Shown here piece by piece: positions 30,264 through 61,420 of a stretch of 64,000 nt of DNA. A model generated the notes under the pieces. The model was not told the DNA's origin, ran no database searches, and saw only the letters and a list, made by a program, of their open reading frames with translations. Position 1 is the first letter of the stretch. Each line of letters begins with the position of its first letter. The stretch comes from Eledone cirrhosa (lineage: Eukaryota), in the NCBI GenBank assembly GCA_964016885.1, contig CAXHJY010000730.1:31897-95896 (forward strand). The letters are read 5' to 3'. Both the position numbers and the translations under genes were made by a program.

Positions 30264-30266
<3 letters not shown>

Positions 30267-30685
30267 CAATAATATTAATAAATGGAAGCTATCTTTATAA
30301 AACCATATTTATTCTATTATATATATTTCAAGGGTATCAACAATTTTGGTACGTTCTCATCAGATAAAATGCAAAAGTTGGTTTACAGATAGTGACATAT
30401 TCAAAACTAGAACTTAGCGTTTTGGGTTCTGTTTGAATAGTGAAGAACTTTAAATCAGGATGGATATGTCACTATCTGTAAACCAACTTTTGTATTTTAT
30501 CTGATGAGAGCGTACCAAAATTGTTGATACCCTTGAAATATATATAATAAAATAAATATGGTTTTATAAAGATAGTTTCCATTTATTAATATTATTGATA
30601 TTATACTCCAGAAGAAACTGTAGAGTGCTTCTAATCTGTTATAAACTAAATTTGTTGAATAACCATCAAATTAAATAACTCATTG

Positions 30686-30690
<5 letters not shown>
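30264..30690. mobile_element. Foldback PLE-derived element (family C): 140-bp arms 30264-30403 and 30461-30600, extension to 30690
   Basis: Reverse-complement arms; flanked by (TG)n and (TA)n; HHR motif in each arm. Confidence 0.85.
30494..30553 (+). ncRNA. Type I minimal hammerhead (family C); mirror copy at 30311-30370 (-)
   Basis: attttat-CTGATGA-gagcgtacc...gataccctt-GAAA-tatata-TA-ataaaat; stem II partly degenerate. Confidence 0.7.
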
Positions 30691-30743
<53 letters not shown>

Positions 30744-32819: not shown

Positions 32820-33665
32820 ATATAATTATTCCATTACCCAAGATTTCAGGAAGTCAGACGGTTCTAACAGAAAGGTCTGATCTGATGAACGACTTAAGAC
32901 GCCTCTGTTACAATCGTCTGACTTCGTGAAACCTTGCGTTTTCTTTAGAAATACGAAATTTCTATACATATTTGTATAAAGCTATGCCTGAAGCGAAATC
33001 TTATTTCTTTTCTAATATAAGTTGAGCCAACTTACGCAGCTTCATATGCAAATGAGATTAATCACCTCATTTACACAGACGAGGAAACTATATATTCTCG
33101 CCTGTCTTCTAGTCCAGCAGTCGCAAGCGGTGGGAGGGACCGTCCTGACGAAGGCCAGAAATGCATAGACGGTTGTCCCCCTTGCTTCCGCCAGAGGGTG
33201 TTTGCATAGCTACGGCTTCCTAAAACTGTGTTTCTTTAGAAATACGAAATTTCTATACATATATGAAGTGTTTCCATAGGAAAGGAAAAGAGAGTGCTCT
33301 ATGTAGGCTACAGAGCTTTTTAGTTATGTAATAAACAAGATAATTATTCCATTACCTAAGGTATCAGGAAGTCAGACGATTCTAGCAGAGGTGTCTGATC
33401 TGATGAACGACTACAGTTGCCTCTGTTAGAATCGTCGGACTTCGTGAAACCTTGGGTAATGCAATGTTTATTACATAATTAAATATATATATATTGTTAA
33501 GCTTTGGGAATCGTGCTAAACATTCAGAAACGAAATATATATGTGTTTCCGTAGTAAAGGAAAAGATTGCTCTATGTAGGCTACAGAGCTTTTTAGTTGT
33601 TATAAACAACATAAGATAATTATTCCATTTACCAAAGGTTTCACGAAGACAGACGTCTGACTTCA
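32820..33665. repeat. Cluster of rearranged PLE-pLTR-like hairpin units with partial HHR motifs (family F)
   Basis: Three related units (attattccattacc...gaagtcagacg); CTGATGA at 32882 and 33400; GAAACcttggGTA at 33446. Confidence 0.55.
33139..33173 (+). ncRNA. Ultra-compact hammerhead motif (family E)
   Basis: accgtc-CTGACGA-aggcca-GAAA-tgca-TA-gacggt; between 32-bp direct repeats at 32940 and 33231. Confidence 0.65.
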
Positions 33666-43360: not shown

Positions 43361-43537
43361 TATCTATCTTTCTTTCTGTGTCTCTCTATATATCAAGACT
43401 CTCTCACTATATAGATATTGTTATACTTTGGGAGGGTCATGTTGCCAATAAAAACACACACACACCTGTTGGTTTTCACTTCAATTCATTATAAATTTCT
43501 GGTTGGTTGGTTTGATAACCGGAAGCTTGTTTATATA

Positions 43538-43580
43538 GTCAAAGCTCTTTCATCACACATTCTGTAACCTCCTCAGTGAC
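43538..43580 (-). ncRNA. Hammerhead (family G) in element ~43418-43635; degenerate copies at ~43970-44007 (+) and 45594-45636 (-, CUGAGAA)
   Basis: gtca-CTGAGGA-ggttacagaatgtgtgat-GAAA-gagc-TT-tgac. Confidence 0.65.
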
Positions 43581-44142
43581 TAGGTTTTTATTTTGTGTGT
43601 CTCTTCTTTGTTCTGTCCTACACCATCTTGTTTTTGTGTGTTGTGTGTTTAGTTTGCGCATGTGTTACATCCAGGTGTGTGTTTATTTATTTACTTGTCA
43701 CTAGTTGGTTGTTTGTTCTATTTGTGTGTGTCTGTATGTCTTCATTTTGTCCTTAATTACTAGTTGTGAAGGCGTGTGGCTGAGTGGTTAGAGAATTGGA
43801 TTCGCATCGTGAGGTTGTGAGTTCGATTCCTGGACCAGGTGATGCGTTATGTCCTTGACCAAGACACTTTATTTCATGTTGCTCCTTCTACCTAGAGTTT
43901 TGACCGATAGATAGTGTTAGCAACTGGAAAAACCAATGGAAACATTGTTTTCTACACATGTTTTATGTTTAAGGAGGTCACAGAATGTGTGACAAAAGAG
44001 CTTTGACAATATTTAAACAACTTTCCGGATATCGAACCAACCAACTGGAAATTTATAATAAATTGAAGTGAAAACCAACAGATGTGTGTGTTTCTATTAG
44101 CAACATGACCCTCCCAAAGTATAACAGAATCTGTTTCAACAC

Positions 44143-45075: not shown

Positions 45076-45081
<6 letters not shown>

Positions 45082-45447
45082 CTGATGGTAGCTAAGATGC
45101 TTCCATTGACGGTATGCCGGTTGAGCACTCTATGCTCTTACAGAGCAGAGTATGATAGAATAGAAAACGAAAAAAATCAGTGATGCATCTGAACTCAATT
45201 TATTGTGTGTTACAATTGTTTCGGTGGTGGACAGCTCGAGACGTGATAATTGTGTGGATCTGTCTGATTCTGGACCCACAGGTTCAACAGACACGTCTAA
45301 TGATTTCGGAGCATATTCTCTCACTCAGTGATCATTGTGTGGATCAGACAGATCCACACAATGATCACGTCTCGAGCTGTCCGCCGGGGAAACAATTGTA
45401 ACACACAATAAATTGAGTTCAGATGCATCACTGATTTTTCGTTTTCT

Positions 45448-45454
<7 letters not shown>
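45076..45454. mobile_element. Foldback PLE-pLTR remnant with only the 3' half of an HHR in each arm
   Basis: Arms ~45155-45270 and ~45340-45454; GAAACaattGTAacacacaataaa; CTGANGA box absent; (TA)n flanks. Confidence 0.7.
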
Positions 45455-45483
<29 letters not shown>

Positions 45484-46151
45484 ACTTTGGGAGGGTCATA
45501 CTACCAATAGAAACACACGCACATGTTGGTTTTCACTTCAATTTATTATAAATTTCCGGTTGGTTGGTTTGGTAACCGGAAGGTTTATATATTGTCAAAG
45601 CTCTTTCATCACACATTCTGTGACCTTCTCAGTGACTAGGTTTTTGTTTTGCGTCTTTCCTTTGTTCTGTTTTACACCATCTTGTTTTTGTAATAAAATG
45701 AAGTGAAAACCAACAGGTGTGTGTGTTTTTATTGGCAATATGACCCTCCCAAAGTATAACAGAATCTGTTTCAACACACGGTTTCAGATAAGAAATCTCA
45801 CAAAACAAATTCAAAAACGAATTATTTTTATTTTGTTTTAAGTGAAAAGGAGGGGTGGGGTAAAAAAAACAGTGAATGGGGATCTGAGAGTTGAGAGTAA
45901 ATAAACTTTATAATAGAATTGTTTTGTTAATTCGAGAGAAGTGTGAGTTCGTGTCCACCTCTCTCTATGCCCAAATACAAACACAAGCATCAGTAATATG
46001 GGTGGGTCAAAGTATTAATGGACCCACCCTAACAGCAGCAGCTACACTCTTGAGATTCCACCAGGGTGTGTAGTTCCAGGACAGAAGAGTTCGACTACAA
46101 GATAAGGGGCTAAGAAAGCAGGTGGGAGAGAATGGTGGCGCTTACATAAAT

Positions 46152-51664: not shown

Positions 51665-53260
51665 GTTGGATGCTTAAAGTGTCAGTATGCAGTAGGCTGT
51701 ATGAGCACTCAATGCCCTCGTAGAGCAGAGTATGATATCACAGAAAAAAGAGAATCAATGTTGCGATGAAAGGAATTTATTGGATATATTACAATAAATT
51801 CCCGTCTATCTACTAACGAGCATATTTTCAATGACCATTCCACTTATTACAATGAAGCTCTTGCTCGGAGTGGATTTGTCGATAAGGTAGCATATACAGA
51901 GTACGAGAAGAGACCTAGAAGAAATAGATACCGACGCATTATATGGAGGTGGCCACACCATTAGCTAAGATCTTTCTCTCCCTTATTATGAAGCATTTTC
52001 CCCCTCACATAAATATAGTAAAATTTTTAATAGAAATACTATTAAAATTTCTTACTCTACGACTCCTAACCTTGCACATAACATCACAGCTTCAAATTTA
52101 GCTAAATTACCTAGCCGTAGGAACACGTGCAACCCTGTAGTTAGTACAAACTGTAATTGTAGGAATCATGTTGACTGCCCCCCTATCCGGGAAATGCCTC
52201 TCTAGTAACATTGTCTACAAATGTAAGGTTGAAACACCCACGTCCCGTAGGGCCTACATAGGGTTAACCGCCAATAGATTCAAGCAGCATCTTTACATGC
52301 ATACCCATTCTTTTCGTAACCCTTTAAGAAGGAATATGACGTCACTTTCAGCTTATATCTGGGGTCTAAAAGACAACCACACCCAATATAAGTTATACTG
52401 GGAGATCCTAGTTAGGGCTAGATCGTATAACGGAAATAAAAGACCATGTGACCTCTGCAGCGCTGAGGCCCTGGAAATACTCTACGCCAAAGACCACATC
52501 TTAAACAAAAAATCTGAGGCAATTTTGGCTTGTAAACATAAATTGCACAAAACTTTCCTGTATTACAGCCCCACATTATACCCTAACGGATAGTACGATC
52601 TATACGCGGATATTTTACGTCTTGATGTGGTAGCTAAGTATATGTTTTGTTTATACCATTACTTATTTGCATAGGTAAGTATATATTACCCGTATGTTTT
52701 GTGAAGGTACGTATACCTTCTCGTACGTATATTTGATTGTATGTTATGGCGTATATATTATATATTCTGGTACATATGGTTTTGGTTATGTGTATACGTG
52801 AGTTTTGCGTCTGTGTGAGAATGCGGGTTCGTACGTATATAGGGTGGGTGTATATGTGTACTTCGTGTTTTGGTTGACGTACGTCTCCGAACATATGTGA
52901 ATTTACATGTAGGTATGTGTGTGCGCTTGTTATATACGTATTTATTTATTTATATACGTTTATTTAATTATATGTATACACACACACACACACATATATT
53001 TATTTTTTTAAAATATATTTTTATGTGTATTTGGTGTATACATTCTTATGCGTGCGGGTACAGGCAATGTGTGGGTTCTGTATGTACGTGCGGGTTTTTT
53101 TTGTGTACGAGCGTGTATTTGTATACCTATGGCGAGTGTTTTCGCGTATGCTTATTTATGTACGTATATGGGTGCGTGTATGTATTTATTTAATTTCAAT
53201 TACCTCTGTATTTTATTTACTTTATTCTTAACTCTGAAGCCGAGAATCATTCGGTTTCCT
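51665..53260 (+). mobile_element. 5'-truncated Naiad-type PLE (thumb, linker, GIY-YIG endonuclease, 3' UTR) preceded by an inverted pLTR piece
   Basis: SRLSTNEHIFN..YYNEAL; CNC..CPL.GKC; NIVYKC; YIGLT; CDLC..E; CKH; frameshifted. Confidence 0.85.
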
Positions 53261-53513: not shown

Positions 53514-53818
53514 GTGACTGGGGATTCTTTTCTTTGTTTTTGTGCCTCTCCTTTGTTCTGTCCTACGCCATCTTGGCGTAGGACAGAATAAAGGAGAGGC
53601 ACAAAAACAAAGAAAAGAATCCCCAGTCACTGAAGAGGTCACAGAATGTCTGACGAAAGAACTTTGACAATATATAAACAACCATCTGGTTGTGGAACCA
53701 ACCAACCAACCAACCGGAAATTTATAAATTCCTAAATTTATAAATTTATTATAATAAATTGAAGTGAAAGCAACTGGTGCGTGTGTTTCTTATTGGCAAC
53801 ATGACCCTCCCAAAGTAT

Positions 53819-53823: not shown

Positions 53824-53850
<27 letters not shown>

Positions 53851-53895
53851 TACACCTAAATAACATATGTACTTGTCTATACCATACTAATTCAA

Positions 53896-53950
53896 ACTGC
53901 CTGAAGAGGTCACAGCCAAAGATGGCTGTCACTGAAATATATATAGCAGT
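53896..53950 (+). ncRNA. Hammerhead ribozyme in the 5' pLTR (family J)
   Basis: actgc-CTGAAGA-ggtcacagcca aaga tggctgtcact-GAAA-tatata-TA-gcagt; cleavage predicted after 53945. Confidence 0.88.
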
Positions 53951-54155
53951 AATAAACGAAGCTAAATTTTAATCATTTGACTTTTATTTAACTTTATTTT
54001 ACACTACTCCGGAGTAACCAAACCAACCTGCGCACTTCGTCGAGTGCTCCAACAGCCTGCATACTGAGGTGTTGGTATACAACCAACAGAAACTCAAAAT
54101 CTATCTAGCTCCCACACGGGTTGAGCGCTTCAAACAGTAGCGGACCTAAGTCACT

Positions 54156-56836
54156 ATGGATAAACTGGCAACCTTAGCGTCACTGAAGGACATCCCCCTA
54201 CCTGACAAACAAGAATACACCAGTGATCTCATCAAGAGTATGGACTCCCTCATCCGTAGGATGAGATGGAAGGCGTTCCACTTCGAAAGAGGAACGCAGA
54301 AAACTACAAACACTGAAAAGATGGAGTACCTTTTTCGATCAAGGAGGAATCCCCCCCACAACAGACTAATGGAGGAGTTTGAAAACGAGATGATTAACAT
54401 CATATCCAACCTCAAATTCTCCGGAAACCCAACCAGAAGTCAGGAGTACCTCAGACACCTGAGAAACCGGATTACAGTACTTAAAGGGACAACTGGAATA
54501 CTTGTCCATGCTGACAAAACAAACAACATCTACAACATGAACACTGAACTGTACAATAAGCTAATCCGCAGGGAACTGAGGAAGTGCTACAAAAAAACAC
54601 CTGGATTTACCCTGGATGAGATCAATGCCACAGCTTACAGGATTATATCCAGAATCGGCATAGAGGACAGGACGGCCCCATACCAACCAAGGGAGCCGCG
54701 GATTACCCTTAAAGACCACAAGTCAAACTTTGAGTCCGACCTCCCTGTCAGACTAATAGCCCCCTCCAGATCTGACCTAGGGATCATCAGTAAAAGAATA
54801 CTGGATAGGATTTTGCCCAAGCTTTGGAAGAAAACCAAATTACAGCAATGGTCATGCACGAGAGAAGTAATAGAATGGTTCAAAATACTGCAGGAGAAAA
54901 GTAGGACCAGCTTTATACAACTGGACATCGCAAGCTACTACTCCTCAATCTCACCCATAGTACTTAATAAAGCCCTATGTTTAGCGATGTCCAATACGGA
55001 CCTAACCTGAGAGGAGGTGAGCATCATCCACACCGCAAGAAAGACCTTAATCCGCTTCGATGGAGACCTGTGGACCAGGAGTGATTGGCCAAATAACTTT
55101 GACATCACGATGGGCTCCAGCGACTCAGCGCAGGTAACGGACCTGGTTGGGCTCTACCTGCTGAAGCAGATAAAAGATGAAATCCCCTGCCTGGGCGGCG
55201 GATTATATCGTGACGATGCTCTATTCACAGTACATGACCACAGCACCAATATGTTGGAGGGTATGAGGAGGCGCATTCGCCATTTCTTTAAGAACCAGGG
55301 GCTCAGCATAGAAATAGACCCAAATAGAAAGGTAGTTTACTTCCTAGACACCACCCTAAACCAGAACACCGAGCAATACTACCCCTACCACAAGCCCAAC
55401 GAGAAACTCGTATATGTTAACGCCAAATCAAACCACCCTAGATCCATAACCAAGGCAGTGGTGAAGAGTGTCTCGGACAGGATCTCCAGCCTGTCCGCAA
55501 GTAAGGAAATATTCAACAACCACGCGGAATATTACAACGCAGCTCTAAAGAAGGCGGCACATGGACAAAATATAACATATAGTCCGAAAAGCCGGGAGGT
55601 GGATAGCCCAACAGACACCCACAACCGCGTCGCCAGAGGGGGGAGGGCGAACCCTAACAATACAGGCAGAACAGAATCAAATAGGCACCATGTACCAGAC
55701 ACCACCACACAGGCGGTGGGGACTAGTGCGCTTGACCACGAGATGGAGCACAATATGAGTAGCAGTCTCAGGCGTGACGCTAACTACCCCAGGATGGACA
55801 ACCCCAACCGCAGGACACGTGGGGGGGGGGAAGAAACGGGCGACCACCCCACGATGGATCTCCTGGGGCGGACAACAACCACCCCACAAATCCGGGCCGC
55901 GAAGATAACAAAAAGTATAGAGCCCAAAAGGGAAGCAACAGTGCGGAAACCACCAGCAAACCAACAAATCTCCAACAAATCACGAAGCCCCCAACCCACA
56001 CATATAGGAGGAGACACCGACAAATCACGTGGTACAACCCACCCTACTCAGCGGCCCTAAAGAAAAGCTTGGCCCGATTGTTCTTTGGAGCACTTGACAG
56101 ATGCTTCCCGAGGGACCACAGATACCACAGGATCTTCAACAGACACACTGTGAAGCTTTCGTATTCCACCACGAGAAATTTGGCCCAACACATAGCTAGC
56201 ATCAACAGAAGTAGGCTTAAAAACCACACACAACCAGAAGATGGCAATACAAACACTCAGCAGAACCATGTGAAAGGAGGGAAGGGGGGACCCAGAGCCC
56301 ACCCAAGAAACACAAACAGACCCAAGGACCCCCCACCGAGCATGGGGGAAGACCAACATGTAACACATAATGAGAACCCTAATCTAAGCACGCAGAGGCC
56401 GCCCACCCTCTGCAACTGTAGAAACCCCGAATCATGCCCCCTTGGTAATGAATGTCTCAAGAAGAACATAGTGTACGGTTGTAGGGTTAAAACCCCCAAC
56501 TCCGAACACCTCTACATAGGAGCCACACCAACGAGCTTTAAGGACCGCTGGTACAACCATCGCCATTCATTCAAGAAGGAGGCCAAAAGGAAAAGCACAG
56601 CTCTCTCCGACCTGATCTGGAAGCTTAAGCTGGACAGGACCCCATACTCTCCGGCCTGGTACATAATCAGGAAAGTACCACCCGATAAAGGGGGATCTTG
56701 CATATGCAAACTATGCCTGAACGAGACCCTCGAGATACTAAGAGGTGGAAGCGGCCTGATAAACCTCAGAACCGACTTCTTCGGGACATGCAGACACCTT
56801 AGAGCCGGGACCTTTCTCAAGATATATGGACAGTAG
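54156..56836 (+). CDS. PLE RT plus GIY-YIG endonuclease (~893 aa if repaired); in-frame TGA at 55008 and one frameshift, probably at the G10 run 55821-55830
   Basis: SLKDIP..RRMRWKAF, ADKT, QLDIASYY, TMGSSDSA, LYRDDAL, FLD, SNHP, WYNPPYS, CNC..CPL..C, IVY..YIG, CKLC..E, CRH. Confidence 0.9.
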
Positions 56837-58022
56837 GAACACAAGAAGATGTCCCCTCAAGCTATAGGGACTTCTACAGAACATGAAAACACCTCTCGGC
56901 CAGACCTCCCTCAAGCTATATGGGCAATAACAACACCCTAGGTTGTGAACTCCCCTCAAGCCACAGGGAACAACCCAGGCAGAGCAGACACCATGATAGC
57001 CTAGAGATAGAATCGGACACAGCCATTATAATTTGGCCAACATCTATAACACAAACACTTTTAATTTACCAGATTTCTGACTTTAAAGTTCCAATCTTAA
57101 ATCTTGATTTCTCTTTATTAATTTGTTATTTGTTTTCTGCCCTCTTCACTGTATCACCTTATATTTATTTTAAGGTGAGATAGATTATAACACAAACACA
57201 TTGAATATCTCATCTTAACATCTTGTATCATACCAATCTATCCAACATATTCTGACCTTGAGATTGGTTATAGCACACACACACACTTTATCCTACATTA
57301 TTTCTCACCTCTCCATATACATTATCATTACTTTTTCACCAATCTCTCATTTACTCTTTATTCTTTATTCTCTATTTATTTATTTATTTTCAAATTACAC
57401 AAATTATATTAATTATTTTATTTTATTATATTATTTATTTATTTCCTGTTTTCTTCATTTATTGCCTTATATTTCTTCATATACATGAAAGAACCCCCCC
57501 CCCCACCACCACTACGATGGTGGCGGGAGGGATGAAGAAAAAACACAAACTGGATACTTCTAAATTGTCAGCAGCAGCAAGATATAAGCTGACCACTACA
57601 ACAACAACAGTACCAAAATAATGGTGGAGGTCAAATGTACTGAACAATAGTAGGCATAAACACTACAGGGAGCCTCACCCCAGAAAGAATTCTATAGACT
57701 TCTGACTGAGGAATGCTCTCAGAACAATGGGAAGTTGGACACTTTTTTTGTTATTTTGTTCCTTTAACACCTTGTCCCTTCTACCATTTTATCAATTTTT
57801 AAGCTAACTCCAACAATAACAACACTTAGAATGAGGAATGTTCTAATAACTGACCAATGAGAGGAGAAGGGGACCTGTGACGCGAAAATTCGTTTGTTTG
57901 AATTCATATGACTCCAGTTCCCCAGTGAATTAACAACCCAACAAGGAACTGGGCATATCAGAGTATTGACAATATCATACACCTAAATAACATATGTACT
58001 TGTCTATACCATACTAATTCAA

Positions 58023-58077
58023 ACTGCCTGAAGAGGTCACAGCCAAAGATGGCTGTCACTGAAATATATATAGCAGT
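58023..58077 (+). ncRNA. Hammerhead ribozyme in the 3' pLTR (family J)
   Basis: Identical to 53896-53950. Confidence 0.88.
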
Positions 58078-58126
58078 AATAAACGAAGCTAAATTTTAAT
58101 CATTTGACTTTTATTTAACTTTATTT

Positions 58127-58158
<32 letters not shown>

Positions 58159-58447: not shown

Positions 58448-60974
58448 TCATCATCGTTTAACGTCCGTGTTCCACGCTTGCATGGGTTTGGACGGGTGAC
58501 ATTGTCTTGGTGAGGTGTAACTGTGTGAGGTCGGAGTTTATCAGCTCGTCCCAGGTTTTTCTGGGTCTGCCTATTCCGTGGCTACCGTCTATCTTTATTG
58601 CCCTGCACTTTGTTATACAGCTATCGTCCTTCATGCGCATCACGTGACCATACCAACGTAGCCTTCTCTCTAGTAAACAACATCTGATCCCTCTTATTTC
58701 TAATTTTTTCCTTAGTTCGTTTATGCTTTGTCGTTCACGTATATTACTATTACACATCCAGCGGAGCATGCAAGCTTCGTTCCTCTCTAGTCTGCGTATA
58801 TCCTCTGCACACAATGCCCAGGTCTCACTGCCATGCAACATTGCTGTTCGTATGCAGGCATCGTACAACCTGCCTTTCATTTTTAGGGAGAACCCTTTAG
58901 CGGCTAATAGTGGTATAAGCTCTCTGAACTTTTTCCACCCAGTTCTGACTCTAGCTACTGTACTTTCAGAGCACCCTCCCCCACTGCTGATTTTGTCACC
59001 CAGGTAACGGAAGCTGTCCACTATTTCTATAGAACCCTCTGTGCAATTGAAAGAGCTAGTATTTTGTGGGCACTTGCTGCTACTTATTGCCCCAGAACAC
59101 CGGCCACATGTAAAATCTATGTTCTTAGTTAGCTTACCTGTGATCCCACTACATCTTTTATGAACCCAAACTTTGTATTTGGGACACAAAATGGAATTTC
59201 TACCTACGCCTTTCCTACACTCTGCGCATGGCCACTTCCCGGAGGGGACCGCCGCCTTATTTTCTTTCTTACAAACTAGAACTTTAGTCTTAGCCAGGTT
59301 AATTTTAAGGCCTTTTGATTCTAGCCCGTGCTTCCAAGTTTGGAATTTCTTCTCTAGCTCGGCCATTGATTCAGCTATGAGCGTTAGATCATCTGCGTAT
59401 AGGAGTTCCCATGGGCAGCCGGTCTTGAACTCCACTGTTATAGCCTGGAGGGCAATAATAAATAGTAGGGGGCTAAGAACAGAGCCCTGATGAACACCAA
59501 CTTTTACACTAAACTCTTCACTATATTCGTTGTTAATTCTAACCTTGCTGACTGTTTCTTTATACATGGCTTGTATAGCTCTCACAAGCCATTCATCGAC
59601 ACCTAGTTTTCTAAGAGCCCACCAGATAATGGAACGGGGGACTCTGTCGAAGGCCTTCTCCAAGTCGACGAAAGCTAAGTATAGGGGTTTACTTTTAGCT
59701 TTCTAGGTACTTCTCCTGTAGTTGTCGTACAATGAAAAGAGCGTCTGTGGTACTTTTTCTTGACACAAACCCGAACTGCATTTCATCTAGATCAATTCGC
59801 TCTCTGATTAGTTGCGCTATTACTTTTTCCGTGACCTTCATGACCTGGTCGATTAATTTAATGCCTCTATAGTTACTCCTATCTAGGGCATCTCCTTTAC
59901 CCTTATAACAGTTAACGATAATGCTGCTACGCCAGTCCTTCGGAACAACCCCATTCTGTATGACTTGGTTGACTATCCGGGTGACCATGGTGTGTCCCAC
60001 CGTACCAGATGCCTTCAGCATCTCGGTAACTATTTCCGAAGGCCCAGCCGCCTTGCCTGTCTTCATATCTTTGATTGCCTTACTTATTTTACTACCCTCG
60101 ACTAACACTGCTGGTCCCTCTATTGGGTCGATGTGGGGGAGACTGTCTTTCTCCCATTTATTCTCCTCATTGAGTAGCCTTTCATAGTGACACTTCCAAG
60201 CTACCTTCTTATCGGCGTCGGTGATGGCAAGTACGCCGTCATCGTTAAGTACACACTTCTCCCCGACAATATCACTGTTTTCCTTGACACATTGCCTGGC
60301 AATCCTGAACACCTCACGTTTTTGGTCCTCACGTTGTAGAACATGCTTGAACTTTCTTTCCTCAGCTTCCCTTCTTGCTAAGTACACTTGTCTCCTAGCT
60401 TCCCTCCTGGCCACTTGATAGTCTTCTCTGCTTCCCCCATCCCGCCATACTTTCCAAGCCTGCTTTTTGGCCTTAATTGACCCCTCCACCTTACTGTTCC
60501 ACCACCATGTTACTCTCCTCCTGCCTACAGGCCTGCTCCAGCCACAGACTTCGTCTGTCGCCGTCAGCAGGTTTGCTTTCAGGAATTCCCACTGTTCCTC
60601 TACCTTGTACGACTCTATTTGCTCTTCCTTACAGTCGAAAGCATCAAGTAATATGCTTTGGAATTTATTTTTGGCTGTGGGGTCCTTTAGCTTCCATATT
60701 TTTCTCATGAGGGTAGTCCTCTTCTGTTGCCTAGTACGTCTCGTCCTGACTATTAGGTCGCTAATTATCAGTCTATGTTGGGAGGTGCATTCTTCATGGG
60801 GGAGGGATTTAGTGTTTACCACAGTCACTTTGTCACGTCTTCTGGTAAGGATATAATCTACCTGGCTGGTATATTCCCCTGAACTGTAGGTGATCAAGTG
60901 ATTGTCTCGTTTTTGAAGTTAGTGTTGCAGATAGTTAGGTTATTTGCGTCACAGAATTCCAGGATTCTGGAGCC

Positions 60975-61004: not shown

Positions 61005-61012
<8 letters not shown>

Positions 61013-61417
61013 AGATCAAAAGATGGTTAAAGGAGTTCCATGTATTTTATTATGCGCATTTCAAAAACAAACATCATCATGCAATAATATTTGTGTTTTC
61101 ATCAGATAAAACAGGAGAACATGATATGAAGGCTAAAAAACACATGTGGATAGTGCAGTTTTAAATCAACATATGAAAAGTGGTTTTAGATTGATGTGTG
61201 ATATTGGGAAAAATATTTTAATATCACACATCAATCTAAAACCACTTTTCATATGTTGATTTAAAACTGCACTATCCACAAGTGTTTTTTAGCCTTCATA
61301 TCATGTTCTCCTGTTTTATCTGATGAAAACACAAGTATTATTGCATGATGATGTTTGTTTTTGAAATGCGCATAATAAAATACATGGAACTCCTTTAACC
61401 ATCTTTTGATCTTATAT

Positions 61418-61420
<3 letters not shown>
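61005..61420. mobile_element. Short foldback copy of family B: 201-bp arms, 14-nt loop, intact HHR cores at 61045-61111 (-) and 61314-61380 (+)
   Basis: Near-perfect palindrome matching the ends of 2576-4733; (TA)n on both sides. Confidence 0.9.

Follow-up and report, generated by a model that had tools for sequence, protein, structure and literature searches.

Copies of Hydra-clade PLEs in Eledone cirrhosa end directly 5' of either of two bulged hairpins

The Hydra-clade PLEs studied here carry two bulged hairpins between the hammerhead-like motif and the ORF, and copies end 5' of one hairpin or the other; each hairpin likely docks one RT. From sequence comparison, the probability of this reading is put at about 0.68. 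The hairpin itself is real, covaries, and marks the element ends. The analysis concerns a 64,000-nucleotide stretch of Eledone cirrhosa DNA (contig CAXHJY010000730.1, positions 31,897 to 95,896), referred to as the window, and related copies elsewhere. The clade and the tail of these elements are known. The duplicated cis-element and the rule that a head-to-head insertion has one end of each kind are apparently undescribed, and literature searches, conducted largely outside the subscription journals, found a description of neither.

Results

The window element

The main element of the window has an ORF at 54156 to 56836 (+) with RT followed by GIY-YIG. Its domains were assigned from motifs; Pfam searches with four ORF pieces gave zero RT or GIY-YIG matches. 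By these motifs the RT occupies 54156 to 55637 and a GIY-YIG endonuclease (EN) at the C terminus 55988 to 56806, with no N-terminal EN. The RWK motif is present as RRMRWKAF, DKG is replaced by DKT (HADKTNN), and the CxCX5C linker reads CNCRNPESC; no CCHH was seen by eye in the EN. This copy is broken by a stop at 55008 to 55010 and by a change of reading frame that falls between about 55784 and 56060.

The 5' pseudo-LTR (pLTR; 53845 to 54001, +) has the same sequence as the 3' end of the element (57972 to 58128, +). It contains a hammerhead-like motif, CTGAAGAG...GAAA, at 53901 to 53950 (+), whose core begins 105 nt upstream of the first hairpin. The 3' pLTR, with its own hammerhead-like motif at 58028, stops at what is called site 1 below and is followed by (TA)n. 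An inverted arm is absent from this element.

The initial annotation had called the element a Naiad. According to Craig et al. (2021, PMC8557442), Naiads have an N-terminal GIY-YIG EN and DKA, while the Hydra clade is defined by RWK, DKT, CxCX5C, plus a GIY-YIG at the C terminus. The Naiad label was rejected: neither an N-terminal GIY-YIG nor a DKA motif nor the absence of a canonical hammerhead was found, and the order of RT and GIY-YIG, the DKT, and the hammerhead-like motif are those of Hydra. A motif search of the published Naiad consensi, in which line breaks mask some matches, did not recover the hairpin either. The element is thus, judged by its motifs, a Hydra-clade PLE. An apparent hammerhead motif in the pLTR and insertion into (TA)n, both traits of this clade, are present as well. 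Its length of 4.3 kb and broken ORF differ from the Hydra-clade norm of generally <3 kb with a single ORF; unbroken Hydra ORFs of 710 aa occur in family F elsewhere in the genome. Such ORFs are numerous and near-identical at loci L185 to L206, suggesting recent activity, and the anchor of family B had about 24,800 matches.

Other repeats surround the element. Beside it (53517 to 53627 and 53574 to 53810) lies a different family, in which a long inverted repeat accompanies a hammerhead-like core, with further copies at 28385 to 28586, 43413 to 43637, and 45491 to 45778 and cores at 53630, 28546, and 43576. LINE fragments, which from their motifs we take to be RTE-like and CR1-like, lie within (TA)n-rich microsatellites at 452 to 2192, 12488 to 14368, 24384 to 25763, and 58458 to 60918, and also at 9000 to 10562.

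The hairpin motif

The motif is about 25 nt long and duplicated. It consists of mostly RCTC, an upper stem-loop, a 2-nt bulge with U first, GAGY, and then mostly RCU. In the window element, hairpin 1 (hp1) lies at 54005 to 54046 (+), with an ACTC:GAGT lower stem and a TC bulge, and hairpin 2 (hp2) lies at 54108 to 54126 (+), with GCTC:GAGC and a TT bulge. Each of the seven hairpins originally cited in the window was recovered, with ACTC or GCTC starting at 2456, 4738, 30605, and 54006 on the plus strand and at 45151, 51731, and 33316 on the minus strand; an eighth, uncited, starts at 33589 (-). In the 3.0-Gb genome, three hairpin patterns gave 16,723, 3,907, and 16,402 matches, against 55, 9, and 182 for the reversed-pattern controls. 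A few of the matches are chance occurrences in other repeats (L062, L065).

That the upper stems vary in sequence yet stay paired, as had been proposed, was upheld. The upper stem lay outside the search patterns, and its first three positions paired in 87% of cells, compared with 62% after shuffling (unfiltered set, 55 distinct inner sequences); 0 of 5,000 shuffles, which ignore relatedness, reached the observed score. Among 38 hand-placed hairpins, upper pair 1 was paired in all 38 (CG 22, TA 13, GC 2, GT 1), and upper pairs 1 to 4 were paired in 79% on average, compared with 47% in shuffles, again ignoring relatedness. The score of this set was matched by 0 of 5,000 shuffles, and the same held for 14 metagenomic hairpins taken alone. 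Lower pair 1 was GC in 26, AT in 8, TA in 3, and mismatched in 1, and lower pair 2 was CG in 35 and TA in 3. The bulge began with T in 38/38, which was part of the placement rule. Insertions of 60 to 90 nt are tolerated in the upper loop (L185, L213, L038, L090), with the lower stem, the bulge, and the spacing to the terminus constant.

Folded in isolation, hp1 of the window element forms at -8.3 kcal/mol. The minimum-energy structure predicted for 53880 to 54160 lacks it, with a competing palindrome at 54004 to 54015, and this region is no more stable than shuffled sequence (z = -1.2). Strand counts (15 G-U versus 10 A-C; P = 0.42) show no significant preference for the sense RNA strand. Rfam gave zero matches in 53850 to 54170; for the window, the 150 of 525 matches listed were only microsatellite and inverted-repeat miRNA noise below the gathering score.

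Element termini

The initial annotation had proposed one hairpin and one terminus; two of each were found. Copies of the main family stop either at 54001, directly ahead of hp1 (site 1), or near 54100 to 54104, directly ahead of hp2 (site 2, with termini mostly 4 to 8 nt 5' of the hairpin). The stretch between the sites (54002 to 54104, +) is the known PLE tail. Among 93 copies with an anchor upstream of hp1, 44 ended at site 1, 46 at site 2, and 1 elsewhere, and 2 read through, so that 90 of the 91 ended copies stop directly 5' of hp1 or hp2. Of 155 ends scored in six ORF families, 143 were no more than 20 nt 5' of a hairpin, and such windows make up about 9% of each reference. The 155 ends exclude 14 artefacts of a chimeric reference (in family B, placed at -123 to -137), 48 read-throughs, and 7 edge cases, and the loci were partly selected by the hairpin pattern. 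The typical terminus is 3 to 10 nt before the hairpin, and those at -14 to -20 are mostly subfamily mismatches. The proposal of a covarying bulged hairpin directly 3' of PLE termini is borne out in many families.

The ends of partner copies agree exactly with those first reported: 58128 is equivalent to 54001, and 2576, 61005, and 61420 are all equivalent to 4733. Both 54001 and 4733 are separated from TACTC by 3 nt, and the ends at 30264 and 45454 are 5 and 4 nt ahead of ACTC. Because the (TA)n flank offers TA microhomology, the true junction is blurred by a few nucleotides.

Both hairpins are present in nine ORF families (M, B, F, F2, c6, c5, the L038 family, A, and D); the truncated L140 has hp2 only. 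The distance from the hammerhead core to hp1 is 94 to 107 nt in four families, hp2 lies 67 to 99 nt downstream of hp1, and hp2 is about 20 to 90 nt ahead of the ATG. In families A and D, no more than the tail end was known beforehand, and read-through copies were recovered with hairpin-free patterns. The prediction of hp2 held: it was found directly past the tail end and followed by a Hydra ORF in 3/3 read-through copies of family A and 4/4 fetched copies of family D, with a lower-stem mismatch in one copy of each family.

Families c5 and D have no canonical CTGANGA..GAAA core upstream of hp1 and carry other structured sequence instead (L133, 1340 to 1420; window 45230 to 45330, -; L061). No Rfam ribozyme match was obtained in L133 or L061, and a ribozyme search of seven loci with Rfam gave none.

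Short arms also share recurrent 5' ends, at -176 to -179 in family B (22/50) and at -222 to -224 in family M (7/25). In both families this end falls between C and ATATG, where a predicted hairpin located upstream of the hammerhead has its base (window about 57906; L221, L222, L229, L246, L252), and it may mark where transcription starts or where the RT runs off.

Head-to-head insertions

In head-to-head pairs, 41 of 45 combined a site-1 end with a site-2 end, a departure from independence at P = 8e-10. The remainder were two site 2/site 2 pairs, one site 1/site 1 pair, and one pair with another end. The 45 pairs are minus/plus neighbors chosen by position alone, with four loci fetched earlier included. 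Family B pairs were picked without the terminal-W filter, which loses some read-through copies; the partner position of L245 comes from the filtered pattern. Three insertions in the window obey the rule. In family B (2576 to 4821), the minus arm ends at site 1 (2576) and the plus arm at site 2 (about 4821), with hp1 at 4737 to 4763. The family C insertion (30264 to 30694) has a site-1 end at 30264, hp1 at 30604 to 30627, and its tail end at about 30690, and that of family D (45077 to 45454) has its tail end at about 45077, hp1 at 45126 to 45152 (-), and a site-1 end at 45454. The exception is the family B inverted pair at 61005 to 61420, both ends of which are site 1.

In five pairs (L219, L224, L228, L238, L251), the site-1 arm has 0.8 to 3 kb of extra upstream sequence and the site-2 arm has the tail. 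Each arm thus holds sequence missing from the other, indicating that the arms were templated separately and that neither was copied from the other. Arms were near-symmetric in 9/17 abutting pairs of family B and 4/8 of family M, often at a CATATG palindrome.

Short families of the window

The initial annotation had tied the short hairpin-bearing families to the PLE machinery. Read-through copies elsewhere that bear an ORF were found for families A (2455), B (4737), D (45152), and F (33316). The short window copies of these families are therefore truncated arms, and their classification as retrozymes was rejected. Family C (30604) is 76 to 86% like an ORF-bearing family. Most of the short families in the window are accordingly truncated copies of other ORF-bearing Hydra families. 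In family A, hp1 is at 2455 to 2477 (+) and the tail end at about 2545; in family E, hp1 (51706 to 51732, -) lies in an inverted arm adjoining a Hydra thumb/EN fragment (51996 to 52539, +); and in family F, hp1 is at 33296 to 33316 (-), with a second copy at 33569 to 33589. What stands of the proposed tie is an ORF-less family with hairpins outside the window, which is the actual link between short families and PLE machinery.

This family consists of tandem copies of about 594 bp (L090; relatives L084 and L111), with a longest stop-free frame of 96 aa. It carries hp1 and a long-looped hp2 with a compensated TCTC:GAGA lower stem, and site 2 is just ahead of hp2. Its ends are mostly at site 2, in (TA)n. 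Site-1 ends are rare (1/38 among the matches listed, a share that is an overestimate because the pattern dropped many read-through copies), and the sole inverted pair seen (L278) is site 1/site 2. Like the non-LTR retrozymes, ORF-less tandem units for which mobilization by PLEs has been proposed (PMC7229834; bioRxiv 10.64898/2026.07.22.740005), the 594-bp family is an ORF-less tandem unit. It differs from them in the Type I hammerhead expected in each unit: no core was found by a CTGANGA..GAAA search of the 190 nt upstream of hp1, and Rfam found no ribozyme in L090, L084, or L111. The family may have an unrecognized ribozyme or none.

Conservation beyond the genome

Scanning metagenome contigs by protein sequence alone yielded 14 loci, nine with a 5'UTR and five without. 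The motif was present in 8/9 of these Hydra-like 5'UTRs. Two hairpins were found in L173, L174, L175, L180, L181, and L184, L181 and L184 each having a single mismatch in a lower stem, and one clear hairpin in L171 and L176; L177 was not clearly readable. By eye, L174 and L176 show an end about 7 to 8 nt ahead of a hairpin. A search of viral contigs gave no relatives.

Coral and sea cucumber Hydra consensi carry the motif with compensatory changes. Among six published Hydra consensi, it was clear by eye in Hydra-2_Amil, Hydra-1_Ajap (twice), and Hydra-2_Ajap; it is degenerate in Hydra-1_Crog and doubtful in Hydra-1_Obim, and Hydra-1_Amil ends short of the region. Six 9-nt words of the 3' arm gave eight matches in the published PLE consensi, of which four were in Hydra UTR hairpins, two in Naiad, and two in Chlamys sequences. 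The Naiad and Chlamys matches lie, by eye, in apparent coding stretches that lack the hairpin; line breaks mask some matches.

Discussion

A covarying structure at a fixed position with respect to where the cDNA starts was found, with genomic termini as a proxy for that start, and the position of the hairpin 3' of the termini fits an RT-positioning signal. In the proposed mechanism, each hairpin would hold one RT just 3' of the template start, so that the cDNA would start internally, a few bases upstream. The EN would cut both strands of the (TA)n target, both target 3'-OH ends would prime on sense RNA, one per hairpin, and the two cDNAs would then join head-to-head at their far ends. Double priming at two hairpins would lead to a head-to-head inversion with the tail at one end only. 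With a single shared RNA, the enzyme at site 2 would need to move through hp1 and strip off the other cDNA; the alternative is two RNAs. ORF-less units with both hairpins would be mobilized in trans. The stronger version, in which the hairpin pair loads two RTs per transcript as programmed double priming, each primed by one end of the double-strand cut, and in which the two-site layout is possibly PLE-wide, has about an even chance of being correct.

The same termini might be produced by hairpins acting as DNA, the EN recognizing them in a cDNA or fold-back intermediate and resolving it at site 1 or 2, with self-priming at palindromic junctions. The tail is often at one end only, and PMC8557442 attributes this to EN-mediated resolution. 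Self-priming on an antisense template is invoked in PMC3846280 from junction palindromes, and the tail is needed for EN recognition in D. virilis, as cited by Frangieh et al. (2024, PMC11167929). The near-symmetric abutting arms at CATATG in families B and M and the indecisive G-U and A-C counts also agree with this view. However, the mutually exclusive arms of the five pairs above cannot be a fold-back of one cDNA, and a cDNA begun at a site excludes the hairpin that lies 3' of it. In addition, the in vitro RT starts of Poseidon_Ac, of another clade, coincide with the tail ends (PMC11167929). We consider this explanation unlikely. A role in RNA cleavage or 3'-end formation directly 5' of the hairpins, with ordinary TPRT beginning at the new RNA 3' ends, is also unlikely. 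It predicts identical genomic termini, and RNA-seq read ends of A. carolinensis correspond to the start sites (PMC11167929), but it leaves one-of-each pairing without a simple reason. The in vitro product size was constant despite extra 3' RNA, with unprocessed RNA the dominant substrate (PMC11167929), and Rfam had no match at 53850 to 54170.

The proximity of hp2 to the ATG would suit hairpins that serve RNP assembly, translation, or transcription, with the termini set by AU-rich microhomology to the (TA)n targets, and the termini do lie in AU-rich tracts that merge with (TA)n. This is very improbable, as the UTRs are AT-rich throughout, yet the ends gather only ahead of hairpins and track the hp1-hp2 spacing as it varies from 67 to 99 nt; moreover, both hairpins are retained in the ORF-less family. 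Docking of one RT by each hairpin is the preferred reading.

Bulged stem-loops that position an RT for internal initiation occur in HBV epsilon and telomerase RNA, and PLEs are the sister group of telomerase. The likeness of the Hydra hairpin to these stems is by analogy, with no homology claimed; HBV epsilon is protein primed and templated from its bulge. In L1 twin priming, both target ends prime and inverted insertions result, the second primer annealing at variable internal sites, whereas both putative Hydra starts are fixed at repeated structures.

The closest precedent is Poseidon_Ac, whose RT starts internally in vitro at two sites bounding the tail (PMC11167929). This Poseidon PLE cuts and extends both target strands and requires RNA 3' of the starts, and the top and bottom strands did not differ in start site. 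The two internal starts at the tail boundaries and the extension of both strands are as proposed for Hydra. In contrast, initiation in Poseidon_Ac was placed inside an AC-rich stem-loop, whereas Hydra termini lie 5' of the hairpin. The binding motif was left undefined within 172 nt, and the accessible text reports no duplicated motif or one-of-each rule. The exact hairpin motif was not visible by eye in the Poseidon_Ac template. By eye, a possible UCUC/GAGA helix begins there at +126, which is 3' of the start at +111 to +118 and within the required +172.

With the Hydra-clade PLEs described in PMC8557442, the elements studied here share, besides the defining coding motifs, the hammerhead motif, (TA)n targets, the pLTR, an inverted arm, and a tail that is often single-ended. 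The tail is longer here (about 67 to 100 nt, in the window in an element of 4.3 kb) than the 30 to 40 nt in those elements, for which the accessible text describes no hairpin. The link between retrozymes and PLEs has been based on hammerheads, pLTR similarity, and co-occurrence, and no cis signal is named in the accessible parts of PMC7229834 and bioRxiv 10.64898/2026.07.22.740005; neither there nor in those of PMC4209133 is such a hairpin named.

The hairpins bear on how PLEs choose the template start and on why their inserted copies are inverted and have the tail at one end. A duplicated motif of about 25 nt that is present in different animal phyla, and whose two copies correspond one-to-one with the two ends, opens the mechanism to testing by hairpin swaps. 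It would also offer a minimal RNA with which to determine structures of a telomerase-related RT, serve as a signature in annotating Hydra elements and the ORF-less families that depend on them, and possibly allow programmed insertion of cDNA from both ends. If the proposed mechanism is true, one design would yield the PLE tail, head-to-head inversion, and the trans-mobilization of ORF-less RNAs.
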